The notes under the pieces are model-generated. The model had not been told where the DNA came from, did no database searches, and worked only from the letters and a program-made list of their open reading frames with translations. Shown here piece after piece: positions 28,585 through 57,965 of a stretch of DNA of 64,000 nucleotides (its first letter is position 1; every line of letters starts with the position of its first letter). Source of the DNA: Clostridia bacterium (lineage in GTDB: Bacteria; Bacillota; Clostridia; Oscillospirales; JAAYXM01); assembly GCA_017559855.1 (NCBI GenBank), contig JAFYQP010000016.1:4509-68508 (forward strand), in the 5' to 3' direction. The position numbers and the translations under genes were made by a program.

Positions 28585-29340
28585 TTACCTCACAGGAATA
28601 TTGTTTCGTCTAAGTTCCTCTTTTACCTGACGGATAGAGAGTTCTCCAAAGTGGAACACACTTGCCGCAAGAGCAGCATCCGCACCCGCTTCATTGAAAA
28701 CCGGTGCAAAGTGTTCCAACTTGCCGCAACCGCCGGAAGCGATAACCGGTATACCTACCGCATCTGATATCGCCCTTGTCATCTCCAAATCGAAGCCGTT
28801 TTTTGTTCCGTCGGCATCGATTGAGTTTAGCATAATTTCACCGGCACCAAGTTTCTCTGCTCTTATTGCCCATTCGATAGCATCAAGTTCTGTAGCGATA
28901 CGTCCGCCGTTTAGGACAACTTCAAAATGTCCGTCATGTGCACGACGAGCATCAATGGCAAGTACAACACACTGACTGCCGAATCTGCGTGCGGCTTTTG
29001 AAATCAAATCCGGATTTCTGACCGCAGCAGAGTTTACCGATATTTTATCCGCACCTGCACGAAGTATTTCGTAAAAGTCATCCTCTGTGCGAATTCCGCC
29101 ACCGACGGTGAGGGGAACAAAAACCTCACGGGCGGTTTTTTCAACAATATCTACAACTGTACGTCTTGCACCGTGTGTCGCCGTTATATCAAGAAATACA
29201 ATCTCATCGGCACCCGCCTCGCTGTATGCACGGGCAAGTTCAACAGGATCCCCCGCATCACGCAGATTGACGAAATTAACACCCTTTACCACACGCCCGT
29301 CATTTACGTCAAGGCACGGTATAATTCTCTTTGCGAGCAT
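28585..29340 (-). CDS. hisF: Imidazole glycerol phosphate synthase cyclase subunit
   Basis: [22 protein letters not shown] and a TIM-barrel HisF pattern. Confidence 0.95.
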
Positions 29341-29354
29341 AAAAGTTTTCTCCT

Positions 29355-30068
29355 TTAATTATATGTCTCACACGCCGCCTTCAGGTCGATTTTACCCGAA
29401 TATAACGTTTTACCCAAGATTGCGGCATCTATTCCGCCATCATCGAGTGCTTTTAAGTCGTCCATGGTAGTAACGCCGCCGGATGCTACAATTTCACAAG
29501 AAACCGCTTTTCTCAATTCGAGAAGTCGTGGCATACACGGACCTGCAAGAGTTCCGTCCGAGTCAATGTCGGTAAAGATTATCGTCTTTACGCCAAATGA
29601 CTCCATCTGTTTTGAAAATTCAATGTAATTAATGCCACTACCTTCAATCCAGCCGCGTGTCTTTACTTCACCGTTTTTGGCATCAATTCCCACGGCAATT
29701 TTATCGCCGTATTTTTTTACCGCCATTTCAACCAAATCCGGATTTTCAACTGCGGCAGAGCCAATAATAACACGTGATACGCCAAGTGCAAGTACCGACT
29801 CTATATCCTCCATGGTTCTAATACCACCGCCAAGTTCAACGGGGATTCCTACCTTATCAATAACCTCTTTTACAACACGGCGGTTCTTTCCCTCACCTGC
29901 AAGTGCACCGTCTAAATCCACCATGTGAAGAAGTTTTGCACCGGCATTAAGAAAACCACGGGCTGTTTCAACCGCACTTTCAGCGACCTTATGTACCGTG
30001 TTAAACTCACCTTTAAGCAGACGAACACACTGCCCGTCTTTTAAATCAATTGCAGGAATTATAAGCAT
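29355..30068 (-). CDS. hisA: ProFAR isomerase
   Basis: [37 protein letters not shown]. Confidence 0.95.
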
Positions 30069-30079
30069 ATACGCTGCTC

Positions 30080-30691
30080 CTAACCGATAATATTTTTAAA
30101 ATTCTCAAGAATTGCAAGACCTACATCACCGCTTTTTTCCGGATGAAATTGGCAACCATAGGCATTTCCGTTTTTTACGATTGCGGTAATTTCCGTGCCG
30201 TAATCGCAAGTTGCAATCAGTTGTTCAGGCTTATTTACCGTTGCACAATATGAATGAACAAAGTAAACGTACGGATGCTCAGGAAGTCCCTTTGTAAGAT
30301 CACAAGGATTTTTAATTTCAAGTTCATTCCAACCAATCTGTGGAAGTTTAAACTCGGTTTCTATTCTCTTAACTTCACCGGATACAAGTCCTAACCCTTC
30401 ACACTCTTCATCTTCAAAGCCACGATCCAGAAGTAATTGCATACCGAGGCAAATGCCGAGCAGCGGTTTTTTCTTAACTTCACTGCATACAATGTCACGA
30501 AGACCTGCATCCACAAGTGCTCTGTAAGCCATGGGGAACGAACCTACCCCCGGAAGCAAAAGAGCATCAGCACGGCAAATTTCATCTACATCTCCGGTGA
30601 TGATATTCTTCGCACCGACAAAATCCAGTGCTTTTGCAACACTATGTAAATTGCCGACACCGTAGTCAATTATCGCTGTATATCCGCTCAT
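30080..30691 (-). CDS. hisH: Imidazole glycerol phosphate synthase glutaminase subunit
   Basis: GNLHSV, LPGVGSF, catalytic GICLGMQ and HSY...QFHPEKS. Confidence 0.95.
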   Translation of the reverse strand: MSGYTAIIDYGVGNLHSVAKALDFVGAKNIITGDVDEICRADALLLPGVGSFPMAYRALVDAGLRDIVCSEVKKKPLLGICLGMQLLLDRGFEDEECEGLGLVSGEVKRIETEFKLPQIGWNELEIKNPCDLTKGLPEHPYVYFVHSYCATVNKPEQLIATCDYGTEITAIVKNGNAYGCQFHPEKSGDVGLAILENFKNIIG

Positions 30692-30693
30692 TC

Positions 30694-31269
30694 TTAAAGT
30701 GCTCCTTTTGTACTGGGGATTTTATCACCTGTAATACGGGTGGCAACTTTAAGCGAACGGCCAACCGCCTTATAAATTGCCTCGGTTATGTGATGCGCGT
30801 TCTCGCCATACTCTGAAATTATATGTAAGGTAAGTCCTGCATTGGTGGAAAGTGCACGCATAAACTCAAGAGTGATACAGGAGTCATATTCCCCTATTAC
30901 CTCTTGCGGCATATCAGCAAAGAACACAAGGTAAGGTCTGCCGGAAATGTCAAGAATTGCATCTGCAAGAGCCTCATCCATAGGCACACGGGCATTGCCG
31001 AAACGCTCAATACCTACTTTATCGCCAAGTGCTATATTTAGTGCCTGACCGATAACGATACCGGTATCCTCTACCGTGTGATGGCAATCGACTTCAAGAT
31101 CGCCTTTGACCGAAACTTCAAGTCCGAACCCTGCATGGGTTGCAAATGCGGTCAACATATGATCAAAAAAACCAATTCCGGTGGAAACACAGATTTTACC
31201 ACCGTCAAGATTCATCTTTACCTGAATATCTGTTTCTTTGGTTTTACGGCTTACACTAGCCTCTCTCAT
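30694..31269 (-). CDS. hisB: Imidazoleglycerol-phosphate dehydratase
   Basis: RKTKETDI, FFDHML, DCHHTVEDTGI, NAHHITEA. Confidence 0.95.
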   Translation of the reverse strand: MREASVSRKTKETDIQVKMNLDGGKICVSTGIGFFDHMLTAFATHAGFGLEVSVKGDLEVDCHHTVEDTGIVIGQALNIALGDKVGIERFGNARVPMDEALADAILDISGRPYLVFFADMPQEVIGEYDSCITLEFMRALSTNAGLTLHIISEYGENAHHITEAIYKAVGRSLKVATRITGDKIPSTKGAL

Positions 31270-32294
31270 TATAAAACCTCCTTAAGTGCAGAAACAACAC
31301 GTGCATTTTCCTCATCACTACCTGCAGTAATTCGCAAATAGTCACCCATTATATTACGCACGGAAATTCCCTTTTCACGAAGTTTTAACCAAACTTCTTT
31401 TGCATTGCTTAATTTAATTAAAACAAAGTTTGTCTTACAAAAAATCGGATTTACGCCAATTTCACAAAGGGCATTAAATAATTTTTCCCTGGATTGCAAA
31501 ATAGACGAAATACTATTACTAATATACTCCGAATCACGGAGAATTTCAAGTGCCGCCGCCTGAGTGAAACCGTTCACATTATACGGAGATTTTGCCTTTT
31601 TAACATTGTCGACAATCTCTTTTGTCGAAATGACAAAACCGCAACGTGCAGCGGCTAAACCAAATGCTTTTGAACAAGTTTTCAGAACAATCAGATTGGG
31701 ATATTTGCCTACGCAATCGAGCACACTTTGATCCCAGAACTCCATATACGCTTCATCAACTATTACAAGGCAGTCACAATTTTCTACAACACGGATTACC
31801 TCATCTCTTTCAAGCCCTTGTCCGCTGGGATTACAGGGATTTGAGAAGATGAGCAGGTCTGCACTGTTTTCACGCACGGTGTTTATCATTGCGTCTGCGT
31901 CGAGAAAAAGACCGTTTTTACCTGCACTTATAACCGGATGTTCAGAAAGTTCAGCATAAAAGGCATACATTGAAAAGTCCGGTGCAGATATTACAACCTT
32001 GCCATCCGTTTCAACCATTGTAGACATCACAAGGGATATAAGTTCATCAGAGCCGTTACCTGCAACCACCTGCTCCGGTAAAACGCCATAACGCTCTGCC
32101 GCCGCCGTACAAAGTGCTTTTGCAGTAGGATCAGGATAACGGTTTAATGCAACCTGACTTAACGCTTTATCAATTTTATCCTTAAGTTTTCCGCTTGGCG
32201 CGAGAAAACTTTCATTTGCATCCAAAACAACCTCGAACTTTTCAATTGTTGGCTCGTAAGGTGCAAGTTTTTCAAGTTTACTTGCAATTCTCAT
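31269..32294 (-). CDS. hisC: Histidinol-phosphate aminotransferase
   Basis: A class-II aminotransferase with NRYPDP, NPCNPSG and TCSKAFGLAAARCG (PLP Lys). It sits between hisD and hisB. Confidence 0.9.
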   Translation of the reverse strand: MRIASKLEKLAPYEPTIEKFEVVLDANESFLAPSGKLKDKIDKALSQVALNRYPDPTAKALCTAAAERYGVLPEQVVAGNGSDELISLVMSTMVETDGKVVISAPDFSMYAFYAELSEHPVISAGKNGLFLDADAMINTVRENSADLLIFSNPCNPSGQGLERDEVIRVVENCDCLVIVDEAYMEFWDQSVLDCVGKYPNLIVLKTCSKAFGLAAARCGFVISTKEIVDNVKKAKSPYNVNGFTQAAALEILRDSEYISNSISSILQSREKLFNALCEIGVNPIFCKTNFVLIKLSNAKEVWLKLREKGISVRNIMGDYLRITAGSDEENARVVSALKEVL

Positions 32295-33565
32295 TTCTTT
32301 CTCCTGACCGTTATTGAGTTTGCATGGGCATCAAGTCCCTCTGCATATGCAAGAATCTCAATTTTCTCCGCAAGTTCCATAAGTGCTTCCTGCGTGTACT
32401 CAATAACACTTGATTTTTTTAGGAAACTATCTGTTGACAGTGGTGAGAAAAACCGTGCAGTACCTGACGTAGGAAGTACGTGGCAAGGTCCTGCCATATA
32501 GTCACCAAGTGGCTCCGGTGAATACTGACCGAGGAAAATAGCACCTGCATTTTCGATAAGTTCCATATCCGCCCTAGGATTTTTGGTAATAATCTCAAGG
32601 TGTTCAGGTGCAACCTCATTTGCAATTTCAGCCGCATTTTCAATTGAGTCAACAACAATAATGGCACCGAAATTCTCAAGTGACTCCTTAATGATCTCTG
32701 CCCTTTTGCGTTCTTTCAACTGCTCTGAAACCGCCTCTTTTACTTTTATTGCGAGTTCTTCACTTGTGGTGAGCACGATTGAGGACGCGAGTTTATCATG
32801 CTCTGCTTGGCTTAACATATCCGCCGCTACATATTCTGCATTTGCACTTTCATCCGCAATTATAAGTATCTCAGACGGTCCTGCGATCATATCGATATCA
32901 ACCGTACCGTAAACAAGACGCTTTGCCGCCGCTACGTACGCATTACCGGGGCCTACGATTTTGTCAACACGGGGAATATCCCCTGCACCATAACTGAGTG
33001 CACCTACCGCTTGAACACCGCCGATAGCAAAAACTCTGTCAATACCTGCAATTTTAGCAGCGGCAAGTACCGCGGTGTTCAGGTTTTCCGTAGGTGGTGT
33101 TACCATTATTATTTCTCCAACGCCCGCAACCTTTGCAGGGATAGCGTTCATCAAAACAGATGACGGGTATGCGGCAGTGCCGCCCGGTACGTAGATGCCG
33201 ACACGTGAGAGACCTCGTACCCGCTGTCCGAGTTTCGTACCGTGATTTTCCCACTCCCAAGTTTTTGCAAGCATTTTTTCGTGATAAAGCCTTATATTCT
33301 CTGCTGCCGTTTCAAGAGAGTTACGAACGTCTGCATCACAGTCTGAATATGCTTTTTCAAGTTCTTCTTTTTTAATTTCACGAGGTAAAACCTTATCAAA
33401 TTTTTCCGAATATTTACAAACTGCGTCATATCCGTTTTTGGCAATGTCGGCAAGAATTTCCGAAACTGCGGCATTTACCGCACTTCCTACCTCACCTGCA
33501 CGGGCACGCATATCCGCGAGTAATTCCTTCTCTACAACACCGTCTGCATATATAATCTGTGGCAT
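32291..33565 (-). CDS. hisD: Histidinol dehydrogenase
   Basis: YVPGGTAAYPSSVLM, GPGNAYV, QAEHD, APEHL. Confidence 0.95.
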   Translation of the reverse strand: MPQIIYADGVVEKELLADMRARAGEVGSAVNAAVSEILADIAKNGYDAVCKYSEKFDKVLPREIKKEELEKAYSDCDADVRNSLETAAENIRLYHEKMLAKTWEWENHGTKLGQRVRGLSRVGIYVPGGTAAYPSSVLMNAIPAKVAGVGEIIMVTPPTENLNTAVLAAAKIAGIDRVFAIGGVQAVGALSYGAGDIPRVDKIVGPGNAYVAAAKRLVYGTVDIDMIAGPSEILIIADESANAEYVAADMLSQAEHDKLASSIVLTTSEELAIKVKEAVSEQLKERKRAEIIKESLENFGAIIVVDSIENAAEIANEVAPEHLEIITKNPRADMELIENAGAIFLGQYSPEPLGDYMAGPCHVLPTSGTARFFSPLSTDSFLKKSSVIEYTQEALMELAEKIEILAYAEGLDAHANSITVRRKK

Positions 33566-33570
33566 AGCAT

Positions 33571-34203
33571 TTAGTCCTCCAGGTTATCCTCAAGTTTTTT
33601 AAGGAAATCAAAAATCTCTTCCTTGTAAAGTTTCATAGATGCAATATTTACAATAAGCCGTGCACTAATTGGGTGGATGTCCTCAATAGGATGGAGACCG
33701 TTCTCCTTCATCGTTGTTCCGGTCTCTACAATATCCACAATTGCATCGGCAATACCGAGAAGCGGTGCAAGTTCAACCGAGCCTTCAATTTTTATAATAT
33801 CAACGTCCATACCCTTTTTTGCAAAGTATTCCCTTGCAACCTTGGGGTATTTTGTAGCGATTCTTCGAGTTTTACAACCGCTGTAGAAATCATCCTCAAC
33901 CTTTGTAGCAAGAGCAAATCTACACTTGCCAAAGCCCAAGTCAAGCATTTCATAAAAGGAATTACCGTTTTCCATAATGGTATCCTTACCTACAACACCG
34001 AGATCGCACACGCCGTGTTCTACATAAGTTATTACGTCTGCCGCCTTTGCAAGAACTATTTCAAGGGGGTAGTTCGGAATCTTATAAATAAGTTTGCGGC
34101 TACCACTTTCAAGTTCACTACAGTCAAGTCCCATTTTTTTAAGTACGGCAAGAGTCTTCTTTTCAAGTCGTCCCTTGGTTAATGCAATTTTTAGTACACT
34201 CAT
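33571..34203 (-). CDS. hisG: ATP phosphoribosyltransferase, short form
   Basis: A 210-aa HisG(S) with LKIALTKGRL and DIVETGTTMKENGL. It is paired with hisZ. Confidence 0.95.
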   Translation of the reverse strand: MSVLKIALTKGRLEKKTLAVLKKMGLDCSELESGSRKLIYKIPNYPLEIVLAKAADVITYVEHGVCDLGVVGKDTIMENGNSFYEMLDLGFGKCRFALATKVEDDFYSGCKTRRIATKYPKVAREYFAKKGMDVDIIKIEGSVELAPLLGIADAIVDIVETGTTMKENGLHPIEDIHPISARLIVNIASMKLYKEEIFDFLKKLEDNLED

Positions 34204-35346
34204 TTATTTCACCTCCAAAATGGTGCCATCTGCATATATAACAAGCAGTCTTAGATTGTTTTTCTCTGCATACGCACGGCTTTCCTCAATGGTTTTGCAT
34301 GAAGAGAGGGTTGTATTATCATGTTTGTCGAGGTATTCAAATCCACAACGAACAGCACCCTGTGTTATGTGAAGAAGAGTGTCGTACTTCATTTCCTCAA
34401 CGCCAACACATTCTGCAACAGCATCAATATCAATAGCAAAACCTACTGCCGGAACTTCTTTTCCAAAGGATGTAATAAGGTTATCATATCTTCCGCCTGA
34501 AAGTACCGGTGTACCGACACCTTCCATATAGCCTCTGATAATGATACCGCTATAGTAGTCAATCTGGTGTACAAGTCCTAAATCAATGCTTATAACATCT
34601 GCAACGCCCGCCTCTTCAAGCCCACGATACAGTTCCTTTAAGTAAGCAAGTTCGCCATCTGTATTATCCAGAATTTCAATACCGCCAAACATTCTCGACA
34701 AGTTCTTAAGTGCACGAGTTGCATCACTATCGCCAAATCCGTCAAGCATATCGGAAAGAGCCGCAAAATTCTTGTTCTCAATATACGTTCTCATACGCTC
34801 AAACTCTGCATCACTCATCGAAAGACGACCTGCAAGCATCTTGAAATAACCGGAAAAACCAAGTTCAATTGCAATTTTCTTATCGGTGCAGGCACGCAGT
34901 GCATCAACAGCCATTACAATCATCATAATGTCCGCTTCTATTCCACGATAACCTAAAAGTTCAATACCACCCTGCAGGATTTCCGTAGACATACCCTTGT
35001 CTTCTCTGCACGCACGATAAACTTTCTCCACATAGCAAAGACGTGCGGGTAGCATCTGTTCAGGTAATTTTGTTGCCGCAATTCGTGCAATGGGGGTTGT
35101 CATATCCGGGCGAAGTACCAAAAGTTTTCCGGTACATTCGCTCATTTTATAAAGCATTTCCTGCGGAATCGGATTTTCCGGTGCAAGACATGCGTCAAAA
35201 TATTCAAAACTCGGACTGCTTACCTCAGAAAAACCACGACGCAGAAACAAACTGCGAAGAGAATCCTCAACACGTCTGCGTGCACGACACTCGTCAAACA
35301 ATCTGTCACGAGTACCAATCGGAGTTTTAATATCATTCTTTTTCAT
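34204..35346 (-). CDS. hisZ: ATP phosphoribosyltransferase regulatory subunit (HisRS paralogue)
   Basis: It has a class-II aaRS-like core (GTRD, LRPDMTTPIAR, GGRYDNL) without an anticodon domain, and it is the first gene of the his operon. Confidence 0.9.
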   Translation of the reverse strand: MKKNDIKTPIGTRDRLFDECRARRRVEDSLRSLFLRRGFSEVSSPSFEYFDACLAPENPIPQEMLYKMSECTGKLLVLRPDMTTPIARIAATKLPEQMLPARLCYVEKVYRACREDKGMSTEILQGGIELLGYRGIEADIMMIVMAVDALRACTDKKIAIELGFSGYFKMLAGRLSMSDAEFERMRTYIENKNFAALSDMLDGFGDSDATRALKNLSRMFGGIEILDNTDGELAYLKELYRGLEEAGVADVISIDLGLVHQIDYYSGIIIRGYMEGVGTPVLSGGRYDNLITSFGKEVPAVGFAIDIDAVAECVGVEEMKYDTLLHITQGAVRCGFEYLDKHDNTTLSSCKTIEESRAYAEKNNLRLLVIYADGTILEVK

Positions 35347-47024: not shown

Positions 47025-48473
47025 TTAGCCTTCAAGTAATTTTTCACGTATGGTCCAGAGTTTGCTTGACATATCAACATAATACTTATGCGGATTTTCA
47101 AAGCGGAGAACCTCACTCCAGAGATTCTCAAGACTCTTTGCACAGAATGCTCTTATTTCCTCAATTGAAGGACTTTCGTATACACATTCGCCATTTTTAA
47201 ATATCTGTGTAAGAAGGGGTTTTGCCGTAAAGTTTGTAATCTCCTTCTTTTTCCACGTGTATTCCGGGTCAAAAAGATTATAGGGTTTATCGCTATCAAT
47301 CTCCTCATCGAAGAGCGTCATAACGTCAGCCATTGCCTTACCCGACTCGTTATCAAACAAACGCCACACCTGTTTAAAGCCCGGAGTTGTAATCTTCTCA
47401 ATATTCTCGGAAATTTTAATTTTCGGAATAATTTCACCGTTTTTCTCAACGGCAACGAGTTTGTAAACACCTCCGAAAACAGGCTCGGAACGAGAGGTGA
47501 TAAGTCGCTCACCAACGCCGAACGAATCAACCTGTGCACCTTGCATAATAAGGTCACGAATAATATATTCATCGAGTGCGTTGGATACGATAATCTTACA
47601 ATCCTCAAAACCTGCTTCATCGAGCATTTCACGGGCTTTTCGTGAAAGATATGTAATATCACCGCTATCAATGCGGATACTTGCAGGACGTTTTCCCATA
47701 GGAATAAGAATATCGTTAAATGCACGAATTGCATTGGGCACACCGGACTTTATAACATTGTAGGTATCAACAAGCAGAGAACAACGATCCGGCCATGCGT
47801 TAGCATAAGCACAAAACGCTTCATACTCGCTATCAAACATCTGAACCCACGAATGTGCCATAGTGCCAAGTGCGGGGATGCCGTAATCACGCTCACAAAT
47901 CGTACAGGCGGTACCGACACAACCGCCGATATATGCCGCTCTCGCACCAAAAATAGCACCGTCATAACCTTGTGCACGGCGTGAACCAAACTCCATAACC
48001 GGTCTGCCCTGTGCCGCACGGACAATTCTTGTGGCTTTTGTGGCAATAAGGCTTTGATGATTGATGGTAAGAAGCACCATTGTTTCAACAAGTTGTGCCT
48101 CGATTGCCGTACCTCTTACGGTTACAATCGGCTCACCCGGAAAAATCGGTGTTCCTTCCGGAATTGCCCAGACATCCGCTTTGAATTTAAAGTTCTTAAG
48201 GTAATTTAAGAACGCCTCGTCAAACATCCCTTTTGAGCGAAGAAAATCAATATCTTCCTCTTCAAATGAAAGATTCTTAAGATAACCTATAAGTTGCTCG
48301 ACACCTGCCATAATTGCGTAACCGCCCTTATCAGGAGTCTTGCGGTAAAACATATCAAAATACGCAATCTGATCCTGCATATCGTGATCGAAATAACCTT
48401 TGGACATCGTAAGTTCATAGAAGTCCATAAGCATTGTCAGATTCATTCTTCTTTCCATTTTGTTCATCCCCAA
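47025..48473 (-). CDS. pncB: Nicotinate phosphoribosyltransferase
   Basis: LMDFYELTM, FGSRRAQG, GTMAHSWV and RIDSGD motifs. Confidence 0.85.
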   Translation of the reverse strand: MGMNKMERRMNLTMLMDFYELTMSKGYFDHDMQDQIAYFDMFYRKTPDKGGYAIMAGVEQLIGYLKNLSFEEEDIDFLRSKGMFDEAFLNYLKNFKFKADVWAIPEGTPIFPGEPIVTVRGTAIEAQLVETMVLLTINHQSLIATKATRIVRAAQGRPVMEFGSRRAQGYDGAIFGARAAYIGGCVGTACTICERDYGIPALGTMAHSWVQMFDSEYEAFCAYANAWPDRCSLLVDTYNVIKSGVPNAIRAFNDILIPMGKRPASIRIDSGDITYLSRKAREMLDEAGFEDCKIIVSNALDEYIIRDLIMQGAQVDSFGVGERLITSRSEPVFGGVYKLVAVEKNGEIIPKIKISENIEKITTPGFKQVWRLFDNESGKAMADVMTLFDEEIDSDKPYNLFDPEYTWKKKEITNFTAKPLLTQIFKNGECVYESPSIEEIRAFCAKSLENLWSEVLRFENPHKYYVDMSSKLWTIREKLLEG

Positions 48474-51711: not shown

Positions 51712-51793
51712 GTGCGGTCACCCCTCAATATAATCAAGATAATTATACTCCTCTTTTTTCCATCTATCAAGCATTTTTACGGAAATATAAAAT

Positions 51794-51821
51794 AAAAAAG
51801 GCGGAATATACCGCCTTTTTT
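51794..51821 (-). terminator. Terminator after the TIR-RCC1 gene
   Basis: Stem ggcgg/ccgcc with loop aatata is flanked by an A-run and a T-run. Confidence 0.7.
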
Positions 51822-52025
51822 ATTTTAATAATCTTTTGGTTTGCCGCATTTTACGCATTTTTTAGATAAAAAGCCTTTTAACTCACCACCGCAGTGCTGA
51901 CATACACCTGCATTACGGTACTGTTCTCTTTGCTTTCTTTCAGGTTCAGTTTTCTTCCATTGTTCTGCTCTGATTTTCTGCAGTTGCTCTAATGTAATAT
52001 ATTCTTTTGGCAGCATAATATTTTG

Positions 52026-52781
52026 CCAAGTTGATACATCACAAGCTCCACAAGAATTATCACCTGTAGCAACAACCGTTCCATCCGACTTCAAACCAAC
52101 GGTTTGAAATAATGCGGCAGAAATTGCAACTATATTTCTCCATTGATCTACATCACATTGACCTTTATATGTAAAGCCTAGGGGTTGTATATATTTTGTA
52201 GCTACAACTGCTCCATCCGATTTCAAACCAACGGTATGATGTACTCCGGCAGAAACGGCAACAATGTCATTCCAAGAAGAGACATCGCATTGTCCGGCTT
52301 GGTTCATTCCTGTAGCAACAACCGTTCCGTCAGCTTTAAGACCAACTGTGTGCCAAGATCCGGCCGCAATTGCTACTATATTACGCCAACCGCCTACATC
52401 ACAAGCTCCACAAGAATTATTACCATCAGCAACAACCGTTCCATCACGTTTAAGTCCAACTGTGTGCCGATAACCGGCCGCAATTGCTACTATATTACGC
52501 CAACCGTCCAAAGCACACTGGCCGTCAACATTATTGCCAACAGCAACAACCGTTCCGTCGGATTTAAGACCAACCACATGCGACGAACCTGATGAAATTG
52601 CAATTATATTTTCCCACTCAGAAACACCCTTCCACTTGGTTGAAACAACTGTACCGTCTGCCCTGAGTCCCGCCAATGTGCCATCTCCTGCAGAAACTGC
52701 GACTATATCCCGCCAATTTGCAGTCTTTTTCGTCTTTGTCGAGACAATCGTGCCGTCAGACTTAAGTCCTACGGTTATAGT
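52026..52781 (-). repeat. Coding tandem repeats (period about 111-120 nt) encoding seven RCC1-like blades
   Basis: Recurring DNA blocks (gcaacaaccgttccrtc..., attgcwactatattacgccaac...) match peptide units W.NIVAI.AG..HTVGLK.DGTVVA.G.N..G.CDV. Confidence 0.8.
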
Positions 52782-53439
52782 TGTTCCTGCATCAATGCAT
52801 GTCTGTAGGCTTTTTACAATTGCATTTTCTTTTTTCCGAGTTTGAATTATCAGGTGTTCCGCTTCTTTTTCCTTTTTTAATTGCTCGATTTTCGCACTAC
52901 ACTTTTCAAGCAATTCCTTTGAGTCTTTGTATTCAGCAATATCATTCAAAAGAGACCATGCTTTTTCATAGCATTCAAGTGTATCAGCTTTTATTAGTGA
53001 AGTTGCTTTAGCGTACGCTTTTTCTCGCATTTGTTCAGCTTCTTCTTGGCGTCTTTTTTCTGCCTCTCTGCGTTTCTCTTTGATTCGTTCATTTATCTTT
53101 TTCAATAAGCCTTCAACTTCTGCCTTCAGAGCATCATTTGCAAAGCGAATAATTTTTGGATAATTGGGATTATCTTCAAACGAAATTTCACATTTTGCCA
53201 AATCATTACGGCCTTTAACCTTTAAATCCGCCATGAGTTTACCCATGTATGCTTCTGCACACTCAGGATCAAGATCAAGGACTTTTTCTGCATATTCATT
53301 GGCACTGCCCCACTCGCCGTCCTCTAAGAACATAAACATTCTTTTTAAAAGAGGTGCGGTTGTGGCTGTTGCACTTGCAACACTTTGTGGTTCAACTACA
53401 ATCACGGTTTCCTTCTGTATAAAACGGCTGATATTTTCC

Positions 53440-54302
53440 ATTAAGTTCTTATAGAAGGTTACGTCGCCCATATCAAGTGCTTGTAGGTTTTTAAACGCCT
53501 TGGGGATATCGTATGCGTCGAGATTTTTGATACACGGGATAAGATGCTTGGATGAATCCTCCTGCATCATAGCAAGGTATCTGCCCCATTCATTCTTTAC
53601 CCAGGGTGCATCATAATACTCAAATTTTGTACCGATTGCAAGCATTACCTTTGCAGACTTAAGTGCGGCGTAGATATACGGTTCATACTCTGTTCCTGCT
53701 TTATCACGGAGTGTAACACGAGAAAAGAACACCTTGTATCCCGCTGAAATGAGTTCGGTATAAATATCCTGTGCGATACCACTGTCCTCGGTTCTTCCTT
53801 TTGTTACGTCATCGGTTTCTTTGTAGCAGATGAAGATGTCATACGGCTCCTCGCCCTCAACTACCTCGATAATTTTTCTCTGTAATTTGTCAATAGCCTT
53901 TGCTTCCTCGCGGTAGACGATACGTGCAGACGTGTCCGCACAATCGTATGCATAGGTAAAGTTCGCATCATCCATAATTGATGCGGTAATTGTACGATGA
54001 CAGGTAGGGATTTTCTTGCCGGTAACGCTATCATCAACATATTCAATTCCCTATGTACAGAGAACTAAACCCCAATAGCCTTCCGACTCCTCAGGATATT
54101 CTGCAACGATACTTTCATAAACGCCCGCCGCCTTATCGAACTCATTATCCATACGAAGGCGATTTGCACGATTGAATAGATTTGCCTTCTTCTCGTCATC
54201 CGCACCCGCCACGGTTTGTGTCGAGCCACAATATTCACATTCTATTACCCTTTCGTCGGTTACCTTAAGGTCGCCGCCGCACATTTTACACTTGAAAACC
54301 AT
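53440..54302 (-). repeat. Conserved 5' module (Zn ribbon, TPR and TIR), copy 1, direct repeat of 56680..57539
   Basis: I aligned the copies by eye. I count about 10 mismatches between 54008-54299 and 57245-57536, with lower but clear identity through the TIR domain. Confidence 0.8.
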
Positions 54303-54331
54303 ATCATTTCCTCCGCACAATTATTAGCATA

Positions 54332-54360
54332 ATTATACACCTTTCCCCTTAACTGTTCAA
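54332..54360 (-). promoter_or_regulatory. SigmaA-type promoter TTGAAC-17-TATAAT upstream of the interrupted TIR-RCC1 gene
   Basis: The hexamers were read on the minus strand about 30 nt upstream of ATG 54302. Confidence 0.55.
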
Positions 54361-54368
54361 GTTAAAAC

Positions 54369-54397
54369 TTGATAGCGGGGAGAAAATATGATAGTAT
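54369..54397 (+). promoter_or_regulatory. Promoter-like TTGATA-17-TAGTAT upstream of the SEDS gene
   Basis: The hexamers were read directly. It is divergent from the TIR-RCC1 promoter. Confidence 0.4.
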
Positions 54398-54419
54398 AGT
54401 TTTGTGAGGTGAAATTACA

Positions 54420-55544
54420 GTGCAGGATTTTTTAAAAAACCTTGGCATTTTTATTAAAAAACTTGATACCTGGCTTTTGATTCTTTCAATAATCGCATCG
54501 GCTTTCGGTATTCTTTTAATATCAAGTGCTACAAAAAGTTTTAACTCATCCACTTTTGTTACGGTGCAGTCTGTTGCCGCACTACTTGGCATAGTCCTTT
54601 ATGTAGTTATATCTCTTGTTGATTTGGACTCGGTTTGCGGTGCGTGGAAGATTCTTTATATTCTTAACGTTATCCTTATCGGCTCTCTCCTTATTTTCGG
54701 TACAGGTGGTGAGAGTACGGGCAACCGTGCGTGGATTCGTTTCGGCCCTATCGGCATACAGCCGGGTGAGTTTGGAAAAATTCTCTTTATTTTGACCTTA
54801 TCGGGACATATCTATCAAATGCGTGAAGGACTCCCCTCCCTTAAATGTATCGGTATGCTTATCTTACACGCCGCAATTCCAATCGGTATGGTTATTTTAA
54901 TTTCAAAAGACCTCGGTACCGCACTTGTGTATCTTTTCATCTTTCTTGTGATGCTTTTTTTTACCGGTCTTAAAGCCCGTTGGTTTTTAGGTGCGGGAGC
55001 ACTTGTGGGTGCCGCAACACCGCTTCTGTGGCCACTACTTAACAACTACCAACAGATGCGTATTCTGGTTGTTTTCAACCCCGAACTTGACCCTCTCGGC
55101 AAAGGTTATCAAGCGATACAAAGTAAGATCGCCTTGGGTAGCGGCGGTCTTTTCGGACGCGGATTATATAACGGTACGCAGACGCAATATGGTTACCTTC
55201 CCGCTAAACATACCGACTTTATTTTTGCCGCCGCAGGTGAAGAGTTGGGTATGGTCGGATGTATTGCCATTTGTATTTTGATTATTATGATAATCATTCA
55301 TTGCATACGTATTGCACGTCGCTCTATGGGTACGTCTGCAGCTTACGTTTGCATCGGCGTTTCCGCAATGCTTATTTTCCAATTTGTCGAAAACGTCGGT
55401 ATGTGTCTGGGTATGCTTCCCGTAATCGGTATTACTCTGCCGTTTTTCAGTTACGGTGGCTCGTCGGTGCTCACAATTTTTATGGCAATGGGCCTTATAA
55501 GTTGTGCAAAGATGAGGTCGGCACCACTTTGGATATCACAATAG
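54420..55544 (+). CDS. FtsW/RodA/SpoVE (SEDS) family peptidoglycan polymerase
   Basis: About 10 TM segments with SEDS motifs RAWIRFGPIGIQPGEFGK, AKHTDFIFAAAGEELG and LPFFSYGGSS. It uses a GTG start behind GTGAGGTG. Confidence 0.85.
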   Translation: MQDFLKNLGIFIKKLDTWLLILSIIASAFGILLISSATKSFNSSTFVTVQSVAALLGIVLYVVISLVDLDSVCGAWKILYILNVILIGSLLIFGTGGESTGNRAWIRFGPIGIQPGEFGKILFILTLSGHIYQMREGLPSLKCIGMLILHAAIPIGMVILISKDLGTALVYLFIFLVMLFFTGLKARWFLGAGALVGAATPLLWPLLNNYQQMRILVVFNPELDPLGKGYQAIQSKIALGSGGLFGRGLYNGTQTQYGYLPAKHTDFIFAAAGEELGMVGCIAICILIIMIIIHCIRIARRSMGTSAAYVCIGVSAMLIFQFVENVGMCLGMLPVIGITLPFFSYGGSSVLTIFMAMGLISCAKMRSAPLWISQ

Positions 55545-55545
55545 T

Positions 55546-55583
55546 AAAAAGGATGCTATCGGTTCACGATAGCATCCTTTTTT
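55546..55583. terminator. Shared convergent terminator between the SEDS gene and the second TIR gene
   Basis: An 11-bp stem ggatgctatcg/cgatagcatcc is flanked by an A-run and a T-run. Confidence 0.85.
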
Positions 55584-55586
55584 ATT

Positions 55587-57539
55587 TTAATAATCTTTGG
55601 GTTTGCCGCAGTTTACACATTTTTTAGAGAAAAAGCCTTTTAACGCACCGCCGCAGTGCTGACATACACCCGCATTACGGTAGTGTTCTCTTTGTTTACG
55701 TTCACGTTCAAGTTTCTCGCTTTCCTTCTGTGCTTTTTCTGCCATTGCCTGTTCCTGCTTTTCTTTTGCAATTGCTTTTTCTTCACATTCGCGTAACTTC
55801 TCAGCAGAATCTTTCCATTCGCCAATTTCCTTAAATAGTTTAATTGCCATTAAATATTCATTCAGGTCATTTCCACTCATAAGTTCACATGCATTATAAT
55901 ATTTTAAGTCTTTTTCTTTTGCAATTGCTTTTTCTTTATATCCCTTCATGCCATAATGTACAACATTATCTATTCTGACCGTTTCAATAATTCCAAGTTC
56001 AAGAAGTTGTCGCAAGTCATCTTCTAAAGTTCTTTCAATAAATAAGAAGTTGAAATACTTACTTTTTTTAATATCTTTCAGAGTATACGCCCGATCATTA
56101 GAAAGTAAACGTAATATATCCGTTTGACGCAATAGTGACTCTTTTTTACTATGTGTAAAAACGTTTTTGTCAATCTGTTTCAAATACGCAGAATGGTATA
56201 ACTTTACACCTTTTTCAAAAGCTTCAACGGTTCCTTCTTTTAAGAGCCTTGTAACTTCATCTATTGTAATTTTGCTTTCAAATTTTTTCTCGTATTTCCT
56301 TAACCCATTGATCAAACAAGTTACAAGGTATTTCTTTTCCGCTTTTGCCTTAATTTCTTCTAGTAGTGCTTTTTCTTGTGCATCGGCAAAACGAACTGCT
56401 CTTGCGAAATCTTTAAATGTATCTATTCTTATCATGTAGTTATCAATTTCTTCAACCGAAGAGATTTGCATTGTTGCAAGGAACTTTCCAAGATATGCTT
56501 TTGAATCTTCCGGATTTTCATCAAGTGCCTTATCAAAATATTCATCTGCTTTTGTAAAATCTTTATCTTCCAAATAAATATATCCACGTTTTGTCATCGC
56601 TCCGCTTGAAGAAATTGTTTTCTCAATCACGTTATGTTCTTTGGCTTCTTTTTGAATAAACCTTTCAACATTATCAGTTAAGTTCTTAAAAAATGTAACT
56701 TCTCCCATATCAAGTGCCTGGAGATTTTTAAACTCCTTGGGGATATCGTATGCATCGATATTCTTAAAACACGGGATAAGATGCTTTGAGGAATCATCCT
56801 GCATCATAGCAAGGTATCTGCCCCATTCGTTCTTTACCCAGGGTGCATCGTAATAGTCAAACTTTGTACCGATTGCAAGCATTACCTTTGCAGACTTAAG
56901 TGCTGCATAGATGTACGGTTCATACTCCGTACCCGCTTTTCCTCGCAGTGTTACACGAGAAAAGAACACCTTGTATCCCGCTGAAATGAGTTCAGTATAA
57001 ATATCCTGTGCGATACTGCTATCTTCGGTTCTTCCTTTTGTTACGTCATCGGTTTCCTTGTAGCAGATGAAGATGTCATACGGCTCTTCGCCTTCTACAA
57101 TTTCAATAATCTTCCGTTGTATTTTATCGATGGTCTTCGCCTCGTCACGGTAGATTGCACGTGCGGTGGTATCCGCATATTCACATGCAAGGTCGAAATT
57201 GGGATCGTCCATAACAGACGTGGTTATGGTTCTGTGGCAAGTGGGGATTTTCTTGCCGGTAACGCTATCATCAACATATTCAATTCCATATGTACAGAGA
57301 ACTAAACCCCAATAGCCTTCCGACTCCTCAGGATATTCCGCAACGATACTTTCATAAACTCCCGCCGCCTTATCGAAGTTATTTTCCATACGAAGGCGAT
57401 TTGCACGATTGAATAGATTTGCCTTCTTCTCGTCATCCGCACCCGCCACGGTTTGTGTCGAGCCGCAATATTCACATTCTATTACCTTTTCGTCGGTTAC
57501 CTTAAGGTCGCCGCCGCACATTTTACATTTGTAAACCAC
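55587..57539 (-). CDS. Zn-ribbon/TPR-TIR protein with an AT-rich helical C-terminal region and a C-terminal Zn ribbon (intact paralogue)
   Basis: This 650-aa ORF uses a GTG start behind AGGAGGGG, 18 nt after the paaI stop. N-terminal motifs are CKMCGG...CEYCG. TIR-like motifs are YDIFICYKETDD...APWVKNEWGRY. The C-terminal motif is CQHCGG...CVNCG. Confidence 0.85.
   Translation of the reverse strand: MVYKCKMCGGDLKVTDEKVIECEYCGSTQTVAGADDEKKANLFNRANRLRMENNFDKAAGVYESIVAEYPEESEGYWGLVLCTYGIEYVDDSVTGKKIPTCHRTITTSVMDDPNFDLACEYADTTARAIYRDEAKTIDKIQRKIIEIVEGEEPYDIFICYKETDDVTKGRTEDSSIAQDIYTELISAGYKVFFSRVTLRGKAGTEYEPYIYAALKSAKVMLAIGTKFDYYDAPWVKNEWGRYLAMMQDDSSKHLIPCFKNIDAYDIPKEFKNLQALDMGEVTFFKNLTDNVERFIQKEAKEHNVIEKTISSSGAMTKRGYIYLEDKDFTKADEYFDKALDENPEDSKAYLGKFLATMQISSVEEIDNYMIRIDTFKDFARAVRFADAQEKALLEEIKAKAEKKYLVTCLINGLRKYEKKFESKITIDEVTRLLKEGTVEAFEKGVKLYHSAYLKQIDKNVFTHSKKESLLRQTDILRLLSNDRAYTLKDIKKSKYFNFLFIERTLEDDLRQLLELGIIETVRIDNVVHYGMKGYKEKAIAKEKDLKYYNACELMSGNDLNEYLMAIKLFKEIGEWKDSAEKLRECEEKAIAKEKQEQAMAEKAQKESEKLERERKQREHYRNAGVCQHCGGALKGFFSKKCVNCGKPKDY
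56680..57539 (-). repeat. Conserved 5' module (Zn ribbon, TPR and TIR), copy 2, direct repeat of 53440..54302
   Basis: See copy 1. A second short conserved block covers the last 38 codons plus the stop (55587-55703 versus 51825-51941). Confidence 0.8.
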
Positions 57540-57557: not shown

Positions 57558-57965
57558 TTATTTTAGATATTCTATCTCACCTTTTTTAAAGCCTGTTACA
57601 CTCATTTTTGCAACGAGTTTTTCGCTATCGTCAAAAACCTCAACATCGCAGAATGCAACGCTTCTTGTTTCACGGCACACTTTAGCGATAGCAGTCATTT
57701 TGCCCTTTGGCGGTGATATGAAAGAAATATTATTCTCTAGTGACACGGTAAGGTTACCTGTACAATTTGTTGCAACAGCAAACGCAAAATCAGCAAGGGT
57801 GAAAGTAAGGCCGCCTTGAACGGCATTTCCCGCATTCATATGATTTTCATTGGGCACGACCGTGCACTTAGCATAACCTTCGTCTACCTCTTCAATCACA
57901 ATTCCCTGTCCCATTGCGAAGGTGTCTGCTAAAAAGAATTTTCTTACTTTTTCAATATCTACCAT
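57558..57965 (-). CDS. PaaI-family hotdog-fold thioesterase
   Basis: A 135-aa protein with the NAGNAVQGGLTFTLADFA motif typical of PaaI/YigI-type thioesterases. Confidence 0.75.
   Translation of the reverse strand: MVDIEKVRKFFLADTFAMGQGIVIEEVDEGYAKCTVVPNENHMNAGNAVQGGLTFTLADFAFAVATNCTGNLTVSLENNISFISPPKGKMTAIAKVCRETRSVAFCDVEVFDDSEKLVAKMSVTGFKKGEIEYLK

Follow-up and report, generated by a model that had tools for sequence, protein, structure and literature searches.

Two TIR genes with a common chassis and exchanged C-terminal modules belong to a very large family of modular TIR proteins in Clostridia

We analysed a 64,000-nucleotide stretch of DNA from a gut Clostridia bacterium (assembly GCA_017559855.1, contig JAFYQP010000016.1, positions 4,509 to 68,508; hereafter the window), in which positions 51825-57539 hold two minus-strand genes for TIR-domain proteins flanking one plus-strand gene of the FtsW/RodA family (54420-55544). 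Both proteins belong to the TIR superfamily, and their genes to a Clostridia family of modular TIR proteins that is very large. The genes, referred to here as copy 1 and copy 2, and their TIR domains lie as follows.

51825-54302, minus strand: copy 1, 825 codons with a single in-frame TAG; Pfam TIR_2, RCC1_2 and WD40_RLD
55587-57539, minus strand: copy 2, an intact open reading frame of 650 residues; Pfam TIR_2 and TPR_2; AlphaFold model with pLDDT 80.5
53418-53846, minus strand: TIR domain of copy 1, residues 153-295; Pfam TIR_2 E 2.6e-11; 91% identity with the copy-2 TIR segment
56655-57083, minus strand: TIR domain of copy 2, residues 153-295, with W234-x3-E238; Pfam TIR_2 E 2.9e-11

Comparison of the two proteins revealed about 90% identity over residues 1-300 and 84% over the last 43, with middles that do not align; at the DNA level, identity was 85-88% over the 5′ 900 nucleotides and 90% over the 3′ 142 nucleotides. 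From its N-terminus, copy 2 has a zinc ribbon followed by TPR-like helices and a beta-hairpin; the TIR domain and one TPR repeat come next, then a helical region that contains a probable winged helix, and finally a coiled coil with a second zinc ribbon. Its protein is identically encoded on two metagenome contigs in ENA. Copy 1 joins a chassis of the copy-2 type to a charged coiled coil, after which come a seven-blade RCC1 propeller, a further coil and a zinc ribbon. An earlier note, made from the sequence of the window alone, had described two paralogues with a shared chassis and exchanged sensor-like middles, and the near-identical chassis and unrelated middles confirm that description.

Both copies were matched by Pfam TIR_2 (PF13676, clan STIR) over residues 156-279, with 44.3 and 44.5 bits against a gathering cut-off of 28 bits. 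An AlphaFold model of the TIR segment by itself (pLDDT 88.9, pTM 0.86) returned only TIR domains among its top 50 Foldseek matches in the PDB, including SARM1, L7, the TIR-APAZ protein of SPARTA and AbTir, with TM-scores up to 0.74. The TIR-only profile matched PDB sequences weakly, yet these matches were TIR domains as well. The full-length copy-2 model returned TPR solenoids alone from Foldseek, a result that is uninformative on the TIR domain, and the full-length profile matched only TPR and WD40 proteins among PDB sequences. The block that the earlier note had read as TIR by eye (YDIFICYK...WVKNEW) therefore has both a Pfam match above cut-off and a predicted TIR fold.

The same note had placed the Glu of WVKNEW in the catalytic position, and this placement agrees with the model and the alignments. 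W234 and E238 lie at the start of helix alpha-C (helix 86-101 of the TIR-only model), and in the HMMER alignment they stand opposite the W and E of the 'WCLMEL' motif of flax L6, whose Glu is the catalytic residue of plant TIR NADases. In an hhalign comparison the motif aligned to W638 and E642 of SARM1, at low probability. A further hhalign comparison, of the TIR profile with AbTir, had a probability of 6% and a register off by five residues; it was unreliable and was not used. The WxxxE motif was retained in 125 of 126 family members, and this near-invariance points to an enzyme, not to a passive adaptor. Judged by sequence, the TIR domains of both copies look like enzymatic TIR domains.

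Next, the extent of the family was established at three scales. A word-indexed search gave at least 7,998 significant matches among the 8,000 candidates scored, an exhaustive phmmer search with the 300-residue chassis gave 3,936 cluster representatives (50% identity) at E <= 1e-30, and a scan of one genome per species gave at least 590 loci. Since the same architecture recurs in thousands of proteins, the arrangement of the two copies is far beyond chance. Named loci in the species scan came from Oscillospiraceae, Acutalibacteraceae, Lachnospiraceae, Ruminococcus, Blautia, Pseudoflavonifractor, Faecousia and Solobacterium, and its best match was 63% identical to copy 2; the named family records are all Clostridia, plus one Solobacterium.

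Members of the family are frequently found in arrays. Arrays range from one to five chassis genes, and 42 of the 89 loci examined held two to five, always on the same strand. Paralogue pairs within a locus had a median identity of 64% across the chassis, against 20% for the C-terminal part. Among 113 members, the C-terminal modules included RCC1_2 in 32 and DUF6273 in 29, as well as LRR_5/LRR_8, Flg_new, WG and MORN, and many matched no family. Because family arrays pair a conserved chassis with divergent C-termini in this way, the common chassis and swapped sensor of the window are the family norm. Copy number also varies at what is apparently one chromosomal site, where three species carry two, one and three TIR paralogues (loci L020, L023 and L064), directly downstream of a shared gene block that is apparently the his operon. 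In the window, histidine-biosynthesis genes lie at 28585-35346, about 17 kb from the TIR genes.

Several arrays contain genes of other kinds. A four-gene TIR array (L003, 1-19310; also L004 and L005) holds genes for DUF2971, SPFH, four-transmembrane (4-TM) and YhcG-nuclease proteins; it is flanked by a relaxase gene and an FtsK/DUF87 gene and is probably on a conjugative element. Small SIR2_2/AbiH-like genes lie inside the TIR arrays of two of 82 loci (L034 6299-7171 and L054 5373-6293); both match the N-terminal SIR2 region of the PADLOC model LmuA, and the L034 gene alone also matches the ThsA model. Genes for DUF2971, DUF4760 and weakly matching HEPN proteins are likewise intercalated in some arrays. 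TIR-less paralogues were observed within TIR operons as well (L026 4493-5551, L034 9800-11389, L039 14967-16895 and L145 2825-4816), composed of a zinc ribbon, a beta-rich linker, TPR and usually RCC1, some with the same C-terminal ribbon or 'GLF..KK' coiled tail; these could be decoys or regulators.

Clustering of the neighbours in 82 loci yielded two dominant families, a Band_7_1 SPFH protein in 46 loci and a 4-TM protein in 41. The SPFH protein combines Band_7_1 (E 1e-37) with several zinc ribbons; the 4-TM protein, of about 230 residues, spans the membrane with four helices and has a conserved 'FRYSDP' domain on the cytoplasmic side. The usual gene order, optionally headed by an RHH gene, is [RHH] - TIR x n - SPFH - 4TM - TIR x n, with all genes co-directional and median gaps of 23 bp from TIR to SPFH, 3 bp from SPFH to 4TM, 21 bp from 4TM to TIR and 26 bp from TIR to TIR. 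No locus had more than one SPFH/4-TM pair. The reverse search, with an SPFH profile, gave 80 independent metagenome loci, 52 with chassis genes on the same strand and 60 with a 4-TM gene; most of the 28 that lacked a chassis gene were short contigs. These results bear on two statements of the earlier note. Its finding of no known partner genes holds locally, as none lies in the window, and does not hold family-wide, as the SPFH/4-TM linkage was seen in both search directions. Its picture of a self-contained sensor-effector fails for the family, given the SPFH and 4-TM neighbours in 46 and 41 of the 82 loci. The further idea in that note, zinc ribbons that clamp the TIR enzyme to its recognition domain, is speculative.

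Seven longer SPFH contigs also had no chassis gene, and most of these belong to a distinct TIR-less subtype in which a zinc-ribbon protein of about 270 residues is encoded ahead of SPFH. Its genes lie as follows.

L098, 8156-8959: gene for the ~270-residue zinc-ribbon protein
L150, 8196-8996: gene for the same protein
L133, 6711-7535: gene for the same protein
L119, 3910-4734: gene for the same protein
L157, 136-948: gene for the same protein

The ribbon of this protein (KCKVCGGDIVN...C..CGN.W) resembles that of the chassis, and hhalign aligned the protein to chassis residues 2-103 with a probability of 72%. Since a protein paired with SPFH aligns to this part of the chassis, the alignment hints that the chassis N-terminus docks the SPFH protein, and the ~270-residue protein together with SPFH may represent an ancestral zinc-ribbon/SPFH pair. 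Two other candidates were set aside: a marginal Pfam match of the 4-TM C-terminal domain to DExH14_plug, an unrelated family (27.4 bits against a 27-bit cut-off), and a 'G[LF]F..KK' motif apparently shared by the C-terminal ribbon of the TIR proteins and the N-terminal ribbon of SPFH, a visual impression that regular expressions did not confirm. Band_7_1 with a zinc ribbon is the architecture of YdjI, which is tied to envelope stress (PMC11237479); the 'TIR' mentioned in that paper is the CesT/Tir chaperone and is unrelated.

Part of the family is predicted to be membrane-bound. Among 129 members, 72 were soluble, 43 had one transmembrane helix and 14 had several, so that 57 carry transmembrane segments; both window copies are soluble, with no such segment. 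The 15 residues N-terminal to the single-pass helices contain three to eight Lys or Arg, mostly five to eight, and a cytoplasmic TIR domain with an external C-terminus is therefore predicted. In 37 single-pass members, 170-1,100 residues follow the transmembrane segment, and six members are tail-anchored. Ten tails were scanned and consist of TPR-like helices followed by DUF6273 or RCC1, or of Flg_new with LRR. One protein of 1,694 residues (L077, 2770-7854) has a single transmembrane helix and a tail of 1,100 residues made up of Flg_new, LRR_8 and BspA-type LRR_5 repeats; in predicted topology, it is the most Toll-like-receptor-like architecture observed.

The remaining parts of the two window proteins are listed below.

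57450-57539, minus strand: N-terminal Cys4 zinc ribbon of copy 2, residues 1-30, CKMCGG...CEYCG; four short strands in the model
57231-57431, minus strand: TPR-like three-helix unit and conserved beta-hairpin of copy 2, residues 37-103, ...YWGLVLC.YGIEYVDD...PTCHR
56472-56600, minus strand: TPR repeat of copy 2, 3′ of the TIR domain, residues 314-356; Pfam TPR_2 33.5 bits against a 27-bit cut-off
55947-56153, minus strand: winged-helix-like domain in the variable middle of copy 2, residues 463-531; helix-helix-helix-strand-strand in the model
55590-55808, minus strand: C-terminal coiled coil (helix 578-622) and second Cys4 ribbon of copy 2 (residues 626-650), CQHCGG.LKGFFSKKC..CGKPKDY
51978-52805, minus strand: RCC1-like seven-blade beta-propeller of copy 1, residues ~500-775; RCC1_2 E 3.1e-36, five stretches above threshold
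51828-51902, minus strand: C-terminal Cys4 ribbon of copy 1; weak DZR (double-zinc-ribbon) match

Conservation in the N-terminal module was assessed in 26 homologues. In the ribbon, which was present in most of the 120 best matches, C8, C22 and C25 were invariant and C5 was conserved in at least 90%; in the module as a whole, C82, G85-V89 and P99-R103 were invariant. C82, C101 and H102 (the last two within PTCHR; window positions ~57234-57296) are among these invariant residues and may constitute a further metal site or an active site. The model of residues 37-103 has helices at 37-51, 55-68 and 73-83 and strands at 86-90 and 97-101, with a weak TPR_14 match, and a long helix connects the PTCHR beta-hairpin to the TIR domain. 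The repeat at residues 314-356, which matched consensus TPR proteins in the PDB, is the final element of the shared chassis, in line with the further TPR-like repeat that the earlier note had seen past the TIR domain. Cys4 ribbons at both ends had also been proposed there, and they are borne out by the modelled strands, the conserved cysteines and weak DZR matches; the copy-2 C-terminal ribbon, itself a weak DZR match, lies in a tail 84% identical to that of copy 1.

The variable middles are of two unrelated kinds. The propeller of copy 1 has seven G[LV][KR].DG[TA][IV]V blade motifs, at residues 512, 545, 578, 616, 654, 692 and 736, encoded by DNA repeats spaced 114-132 nucleotides apart; together with the RCC1_2 match, these account for the seven RCC1-like blades counted in the earlier note. 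The middle of copy 2 matched no Pfam family. A profile of its residues 455-545 matched the winged helix-turn-helix regulators HlyU (ArsR-type; E 0.003), RosR, PerR and AdcR, at E 0.003-0.5, and the middle thus holds a probable winged helix. This region had been described as AT-rich and helical; it is helical, and it is not featureless, since it contains the probable winged helix.

Each of the two genes has its own candidate transcription signals, of which the promoter-like sites are pattern matches alone.

54332-54360, minus strand: promoter-like site upstream of copy 1, TTGAAC-17-TATAAT; 10/12 in a consensus scan
57560-57589, minus strand: promoter-like site upstream of copy 2; 9/12 in the consensus scan
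51788-51827: hairpin terminator directly past the copy-1 stop codon, a 17-bp stem followed by a T run
55546-55582: hairpin terminator separating copy 2 from the convergent rodA-like gene, a 16-bp stem followed by a T run

A gene for nicotinate phosphoribosyltransferase, an enzyme of NAD salvage, lies 3.3 kb downstream of copy 1 (47025-48473, minus strand), separated from it by FTHFS, tsaE, tsaB and rpiB genes (Pfam labels, taken from the identical locus on the ENA contig L001). Its position near two putative NAD-cleaving genes may be a coincidence, and no nicotinate phosphoribosyltransferase gene recurred among the sampled neighbours at other family loci.

The nonsense codon of copy 1 was compared with copy 2 and with a sister strain represented by contig L001, which carries the same locus at 99.78% identity over 18.4 kb. 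Two features are relevant here.

54051-54053, minus strand: in-frame TAG at codon 84 of copy 1; TAT (Tyr) in copy 2 and Tyr in the sister strain
54018-54048, minus strand: gene-conversion tract, copy 2 into copy 1, in which all 11 differences from L001 carry the copy-2 base

TAG is an ordinary stop codon in the window, where it terminates 13 of 53 genes; recoding was therefore rejected, and the codon is a genuine nonsense codon. Restart at an internal Met is unlikely, given that no Shine-Dalgarno sequence precedes the next Met. On L001, copy 1 is intact at 825 residues, so the TAG is a strain-level lesion, which corrects the account of the copy-1 stop in the earlier note. Across the chassis, copy 1 differs from L001 at 14 nucleotides, 13 of which carry the copy-2 base: the 11 of the tract, plus those at 53628 and 53648. 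Three nucleotides from the tract lies the TAG-creating G at 54051, which occurs in neither copy 2 nor L001. Because 13 of the 14 differences carry the copy-2 base and this G is found in neither, the pattern indicates a recent gene conversion from copy 2 to copy 1 together with a private point mutation; an artefact of metagenome assembly between the paralogues is less likely. In the rodA-like gene between the copies (54957-55436, plus strand), 12 of 41 differences from L001 are clustered, six of them within 25 nucleotides (55316-55340), and this cluster looks like a recombination patch.

Known TIR systems offer partial parallels. One such system is Thoeris, types I-XI, in which TIR proteins of the ThsB kind are combined with an effector such as ThsA. 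The family resembles Thoeris in having a bacterial TIR domain with a catalytic Glu, here by predicted motif, and in setting several divergent TIR paralogues around one non-TIR module, with the TIR protein bearing the variable, presumably trigger-sensing part; Thoeris loci can carry several thsB genes. It differs in that no SIR2-SLOG, Macro or other known signal-binding effector occurs in the window or at most family loci, where the neighbours are instead a Band_7_1 SPFH/zinc-ribbon protein and a 4-TM protein, neither with a PADLOC match. The proteins also matched no PADLOC ThsB model, scored 20.6 bits with NCBIfam ThcB4 against a cut-off of 220 bits, and have a chassis far larger than a typical ThsB. 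A 2025 survey of 29 Thoeris types contains no SPFH, Band or RCC1 in its text and no Band_7, SPFH, PF13421 or RCC1 in its supplements; the SPFH/4-TM module is not among the effectors of that survey. SPARTA is structurally similar in its TIR domain only, as neither APAZ nor Argonaute was found by Pfam or PADLOC in the two proteins, nor among the Pfam families shown for the window.

SpbK, encoded by ICEBs1 of Bacillus subtilis, provides a single-protein precedent for TIR defence: it is reported to be one polypeptide that combines a TIR NADase with a non-TIR region recognizing a phage protein, with no partner gene, a layout that matches the window (PMC12847820). The family differs in being chromosomal and usually linked to SPFH/4-TM, and no sequence relationship between the two was detected past the TIR fold. 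SpbK is not known to have zinc ribbons or a TPR chassis, to carry an exchangeable repeat module or to occur in paralogue arrays. TIR-STAND/NLR proteins, such as plant TNLs and bacterial TIR-Avs-like proteins, share an N-terminal TIR effector, C-terminal repeat sensors (TPR, LRR or beta-propeller) and diversifying paralogues, whereas their central STAND NTPase is missing here: Pfam detected no NACHT, NB-ARC or AAA in either copy, and oligomerization would need the coiled coils, TPR units or ribbons.

For the TIR model, the top Foldseek match was SARM1 (7cm7, E 1.8e-5), whose motif reads WVHKE against WVKNE here; in both proteins a helical-repeat region is joined to TIR, an arrangement suggestive of autoinhibition. 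SARM1 differs in its ARM and SAM domains, neither of which is present in the window proteins, and in lineage and biology, so that the resemblance is mechanistic alone. The membrane-bound third of the family is similar to Toll-like receptors, by predicted topology, in having a repeat ectodomain that can include LRR, a single transmembrane helix and TIR on the cytoplasmic side. It differs in that the order is inverted, with TIR at the N-terminus, the ectodomains are mostly DUF6273 or RCC1, and the enzyme-type WxxxE is kept; both window copies, moreover, are soluble. Last, YdjI of the Bacillus PspA operon has the Band_7_1 and zinc-ribbon composition of the SPFH neighbour (PMC11237479), whereas the TIR loci have no conserved cluster of PspA-, YdjG- or YdjH-like neighbours, their partners being TIR-chassis genes and the 4-TM gene.

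A role in biological conflict is favoured by the enzyme-type TIR domain, by arrays of hypervariable paralogues with turnover in copy number, by the gene conversion and by the nonsense allele, as well as by the one array on a relaxase/FtsK element and the SIR2_2/AbiH-like, DUF2971, DUF4760 and weak HEPN genes in some arrays. We infer from these features that an immune NADase role is plausible. A trigger-activated TIR NADase, serving as sensor-effector or signal generator in conflict or surveillance, is in our view the most likely function of the two proteins, with about an even chance of being correct. In such a mechanism, the variable C-terminal module would act as the sensor of a ligand or trigger, and the coils and TPR units would keep the TIR domains apart until binding unites them; the assembled TIR domains would then cleave NAD+, leading to NAD+ depletion or a nucleotide signal. 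Across the family, arrays of alternative sensors normally surround a single SPFH/4-TM membrane module, and, as the window has no such module, its two proteins would either work by themselves, by depleting NAD+, or act in trans with a module located elsewhere in the genome. We propose only tentatively, as a reading that has the balance of probability against it, that the family supplies the sensors of a TIR system for immunity or surveillance that is Clostridia-wide and has yet to be described, in which arrays of interchangeable receptors feed one SPFH/4-TM effector or signalling platform; the receptors would be cytoplasmic (RCC1, winged helix) or Toll-like-receptor-like single-pass proteins (LRR, DUF6273 or RCC1 ectodomains).

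A number of results weigh against an immune NADase system built around the SPFH/4-TM module. By tblastn with eight SPFH and eight 4-TM representatives, the pair was not found in the window, whose locus is a 'solo' variant of the kind seen at a minority of loci; where family loci were flanked in full, seven of 16 likewise had no pair. No nucleotide-signal-binding domain is recognizable in the SPFH or the 4-TM protein, and neither had a PADLOC match. For the TIR proteins, NCBIfam gave no equivalog-level match and PADLOC no significant match, the latter as the earlier note had expected. The 150 sampled flanking genes were mostly housekeeping and contained no enriched known defence system, so that the enrichment near defence genes raised in that note was not observed. 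Within the window, none of the partners that it had listed as absent occurs among the Pfam matches shown, and the Pfam-labelled genes look housekeeping, as it had stated. Family matches numbered zero in INPHARED phages, zero in PLSDB plasmids and two in IMG/VR, and a phage- or plasmid-borne origin was rejected. In addition, in the sole published activity assay of a family member, the isolated TIR domain of Eubacterium eligens EUBELI_RS07950, a clear family member with 44% identity over residues 4-372 of the chassis region, gave no NADase product in E. coli lysate (PMC9092222, Table S2). In that screen 28 of 152 TIR domains were positive and its authors caution about false negatives (PMC9092222); an enzyme that requires full-length assembly or a trigger would also be negative in an isolated-domain screen.

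These observations leave room for other explanations. The proteins may be self-contained abortive-infection NADases, each with its own C-terminal sensor of a phage or plasmid component, in which NAD+ depletion kills or arrests the cell and the SPFH/4-TM neighbours at other loci are an optional add-on or unrelated co-residents. The solo locus is what this explanation would have, with no partner in 64 kb, seven of 16 fully flanked loci without the pair, a promoter-like site and terminator for each window gene, an intact catalytic motif and the precedent of SpbK (PMC12847820). We nevertheless regard it as doubtful, because the operon-tight linkage to SPFH/4-TM, seen in both search directions, is too strong for chance co-residence, many members are membrane proteins, and the isolated EUBELI_RS07950 domain was inactive in vitro. 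The last result is in keeping with a non-immune function in membrane-proximal sensing or scaffolding, in which receptors would report envelope or environmental cues to an SPFH-organized complex resembling the YdjI context of the Bacillus PspA system, and TIR would serve in assembly or as an adaptor, or would generate second messengers for physiology. Mostly housekeeping neighbours and a broad spread across Clostridia agree with such a function, as do the 43 of 129 members that are single-pass, 37 of them with 170-1,100 residues past the membrane that include DUF6273, RCC1 and LRR/Flg_new, the envelope-stress-linked YdjI architecture of the SPFH protein (PMC11237479) and the pairing of SPFH, at TIR-less loci, with a zinc-ribbon protein like the chassis N-terminus (hhalign 72%). 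Yet the near-invariance of WxxxE favours an enzyme over a passive adaptor, and conflict systems are typically marked by hypervariable arrays, copy-number turnover, pseudogenization and interspersed SIR2/Abi-like genes, which makes the non-immune function unlikely.

The window genes could also be decaying remnants that have become detached from the SPFH/4-TM module and are turning into pseudogenes, given the copy-1 nonsense codon with no restart signal and the lack of a partner module in the window. However, copy 2 is intact and identically encoded on two independent contigs, a 99.8%-identical strain has an uninterrupted copy 1, all family-invariant chassis residues are kept and gene conversion between the copies was recent, so that we consider decay very improbable.

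TIR domains are a shared currency of innate immunity across animals, plants and bacteria, and the family described here, with 3,936 clusters, is widespread in gut and rumen Clostridia yet functionally blank. Curated databases label its members just 'TIR domain-containing protein', PADLOC is blind to the family, and the literature searched contains no description of such a system: the motifs WVKNEW, FICYKET and YGIEYVDD were found in the main text of no paper, queries on DUF6273, RCC1_2 and TIR_2 gave nothing relevant, TIR with SPFH and phage gave one incidental citation, and no paper was found that describes an SPFH/4-TM module beside TIR genes. If the proteins are trigger-activated NADases, they would represent a prevalent TIR architecture in which zinc ribbons, TPR units and coiled coils replace the STAND NTPase, together with a new candidate partner module of an SPFH scaffold and a 4-TM protein. 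If the proposed Clostridia-wide system exists, it would be a bacterial TIR pathway that senses extracellular events and acts at the membrane, distinct from the listed Thoeris types, CBASS and NLR-like systems, and the Toll-like-receptor-like topology of the membrane-bound members makes outside-in TIR signalling in bacteria directly testable. The two window genes provide a natural domain swap, and the sister strain offers an intact allele of the damaged copy 1. Gut TIR enzymes produce metabolites of the cyclic ADP-ribose (cADPR) type that reach the host (PMC9092222), and an abundant Clostridial TIR family would therefore be relevant to NAD metabolism in the microbiome.

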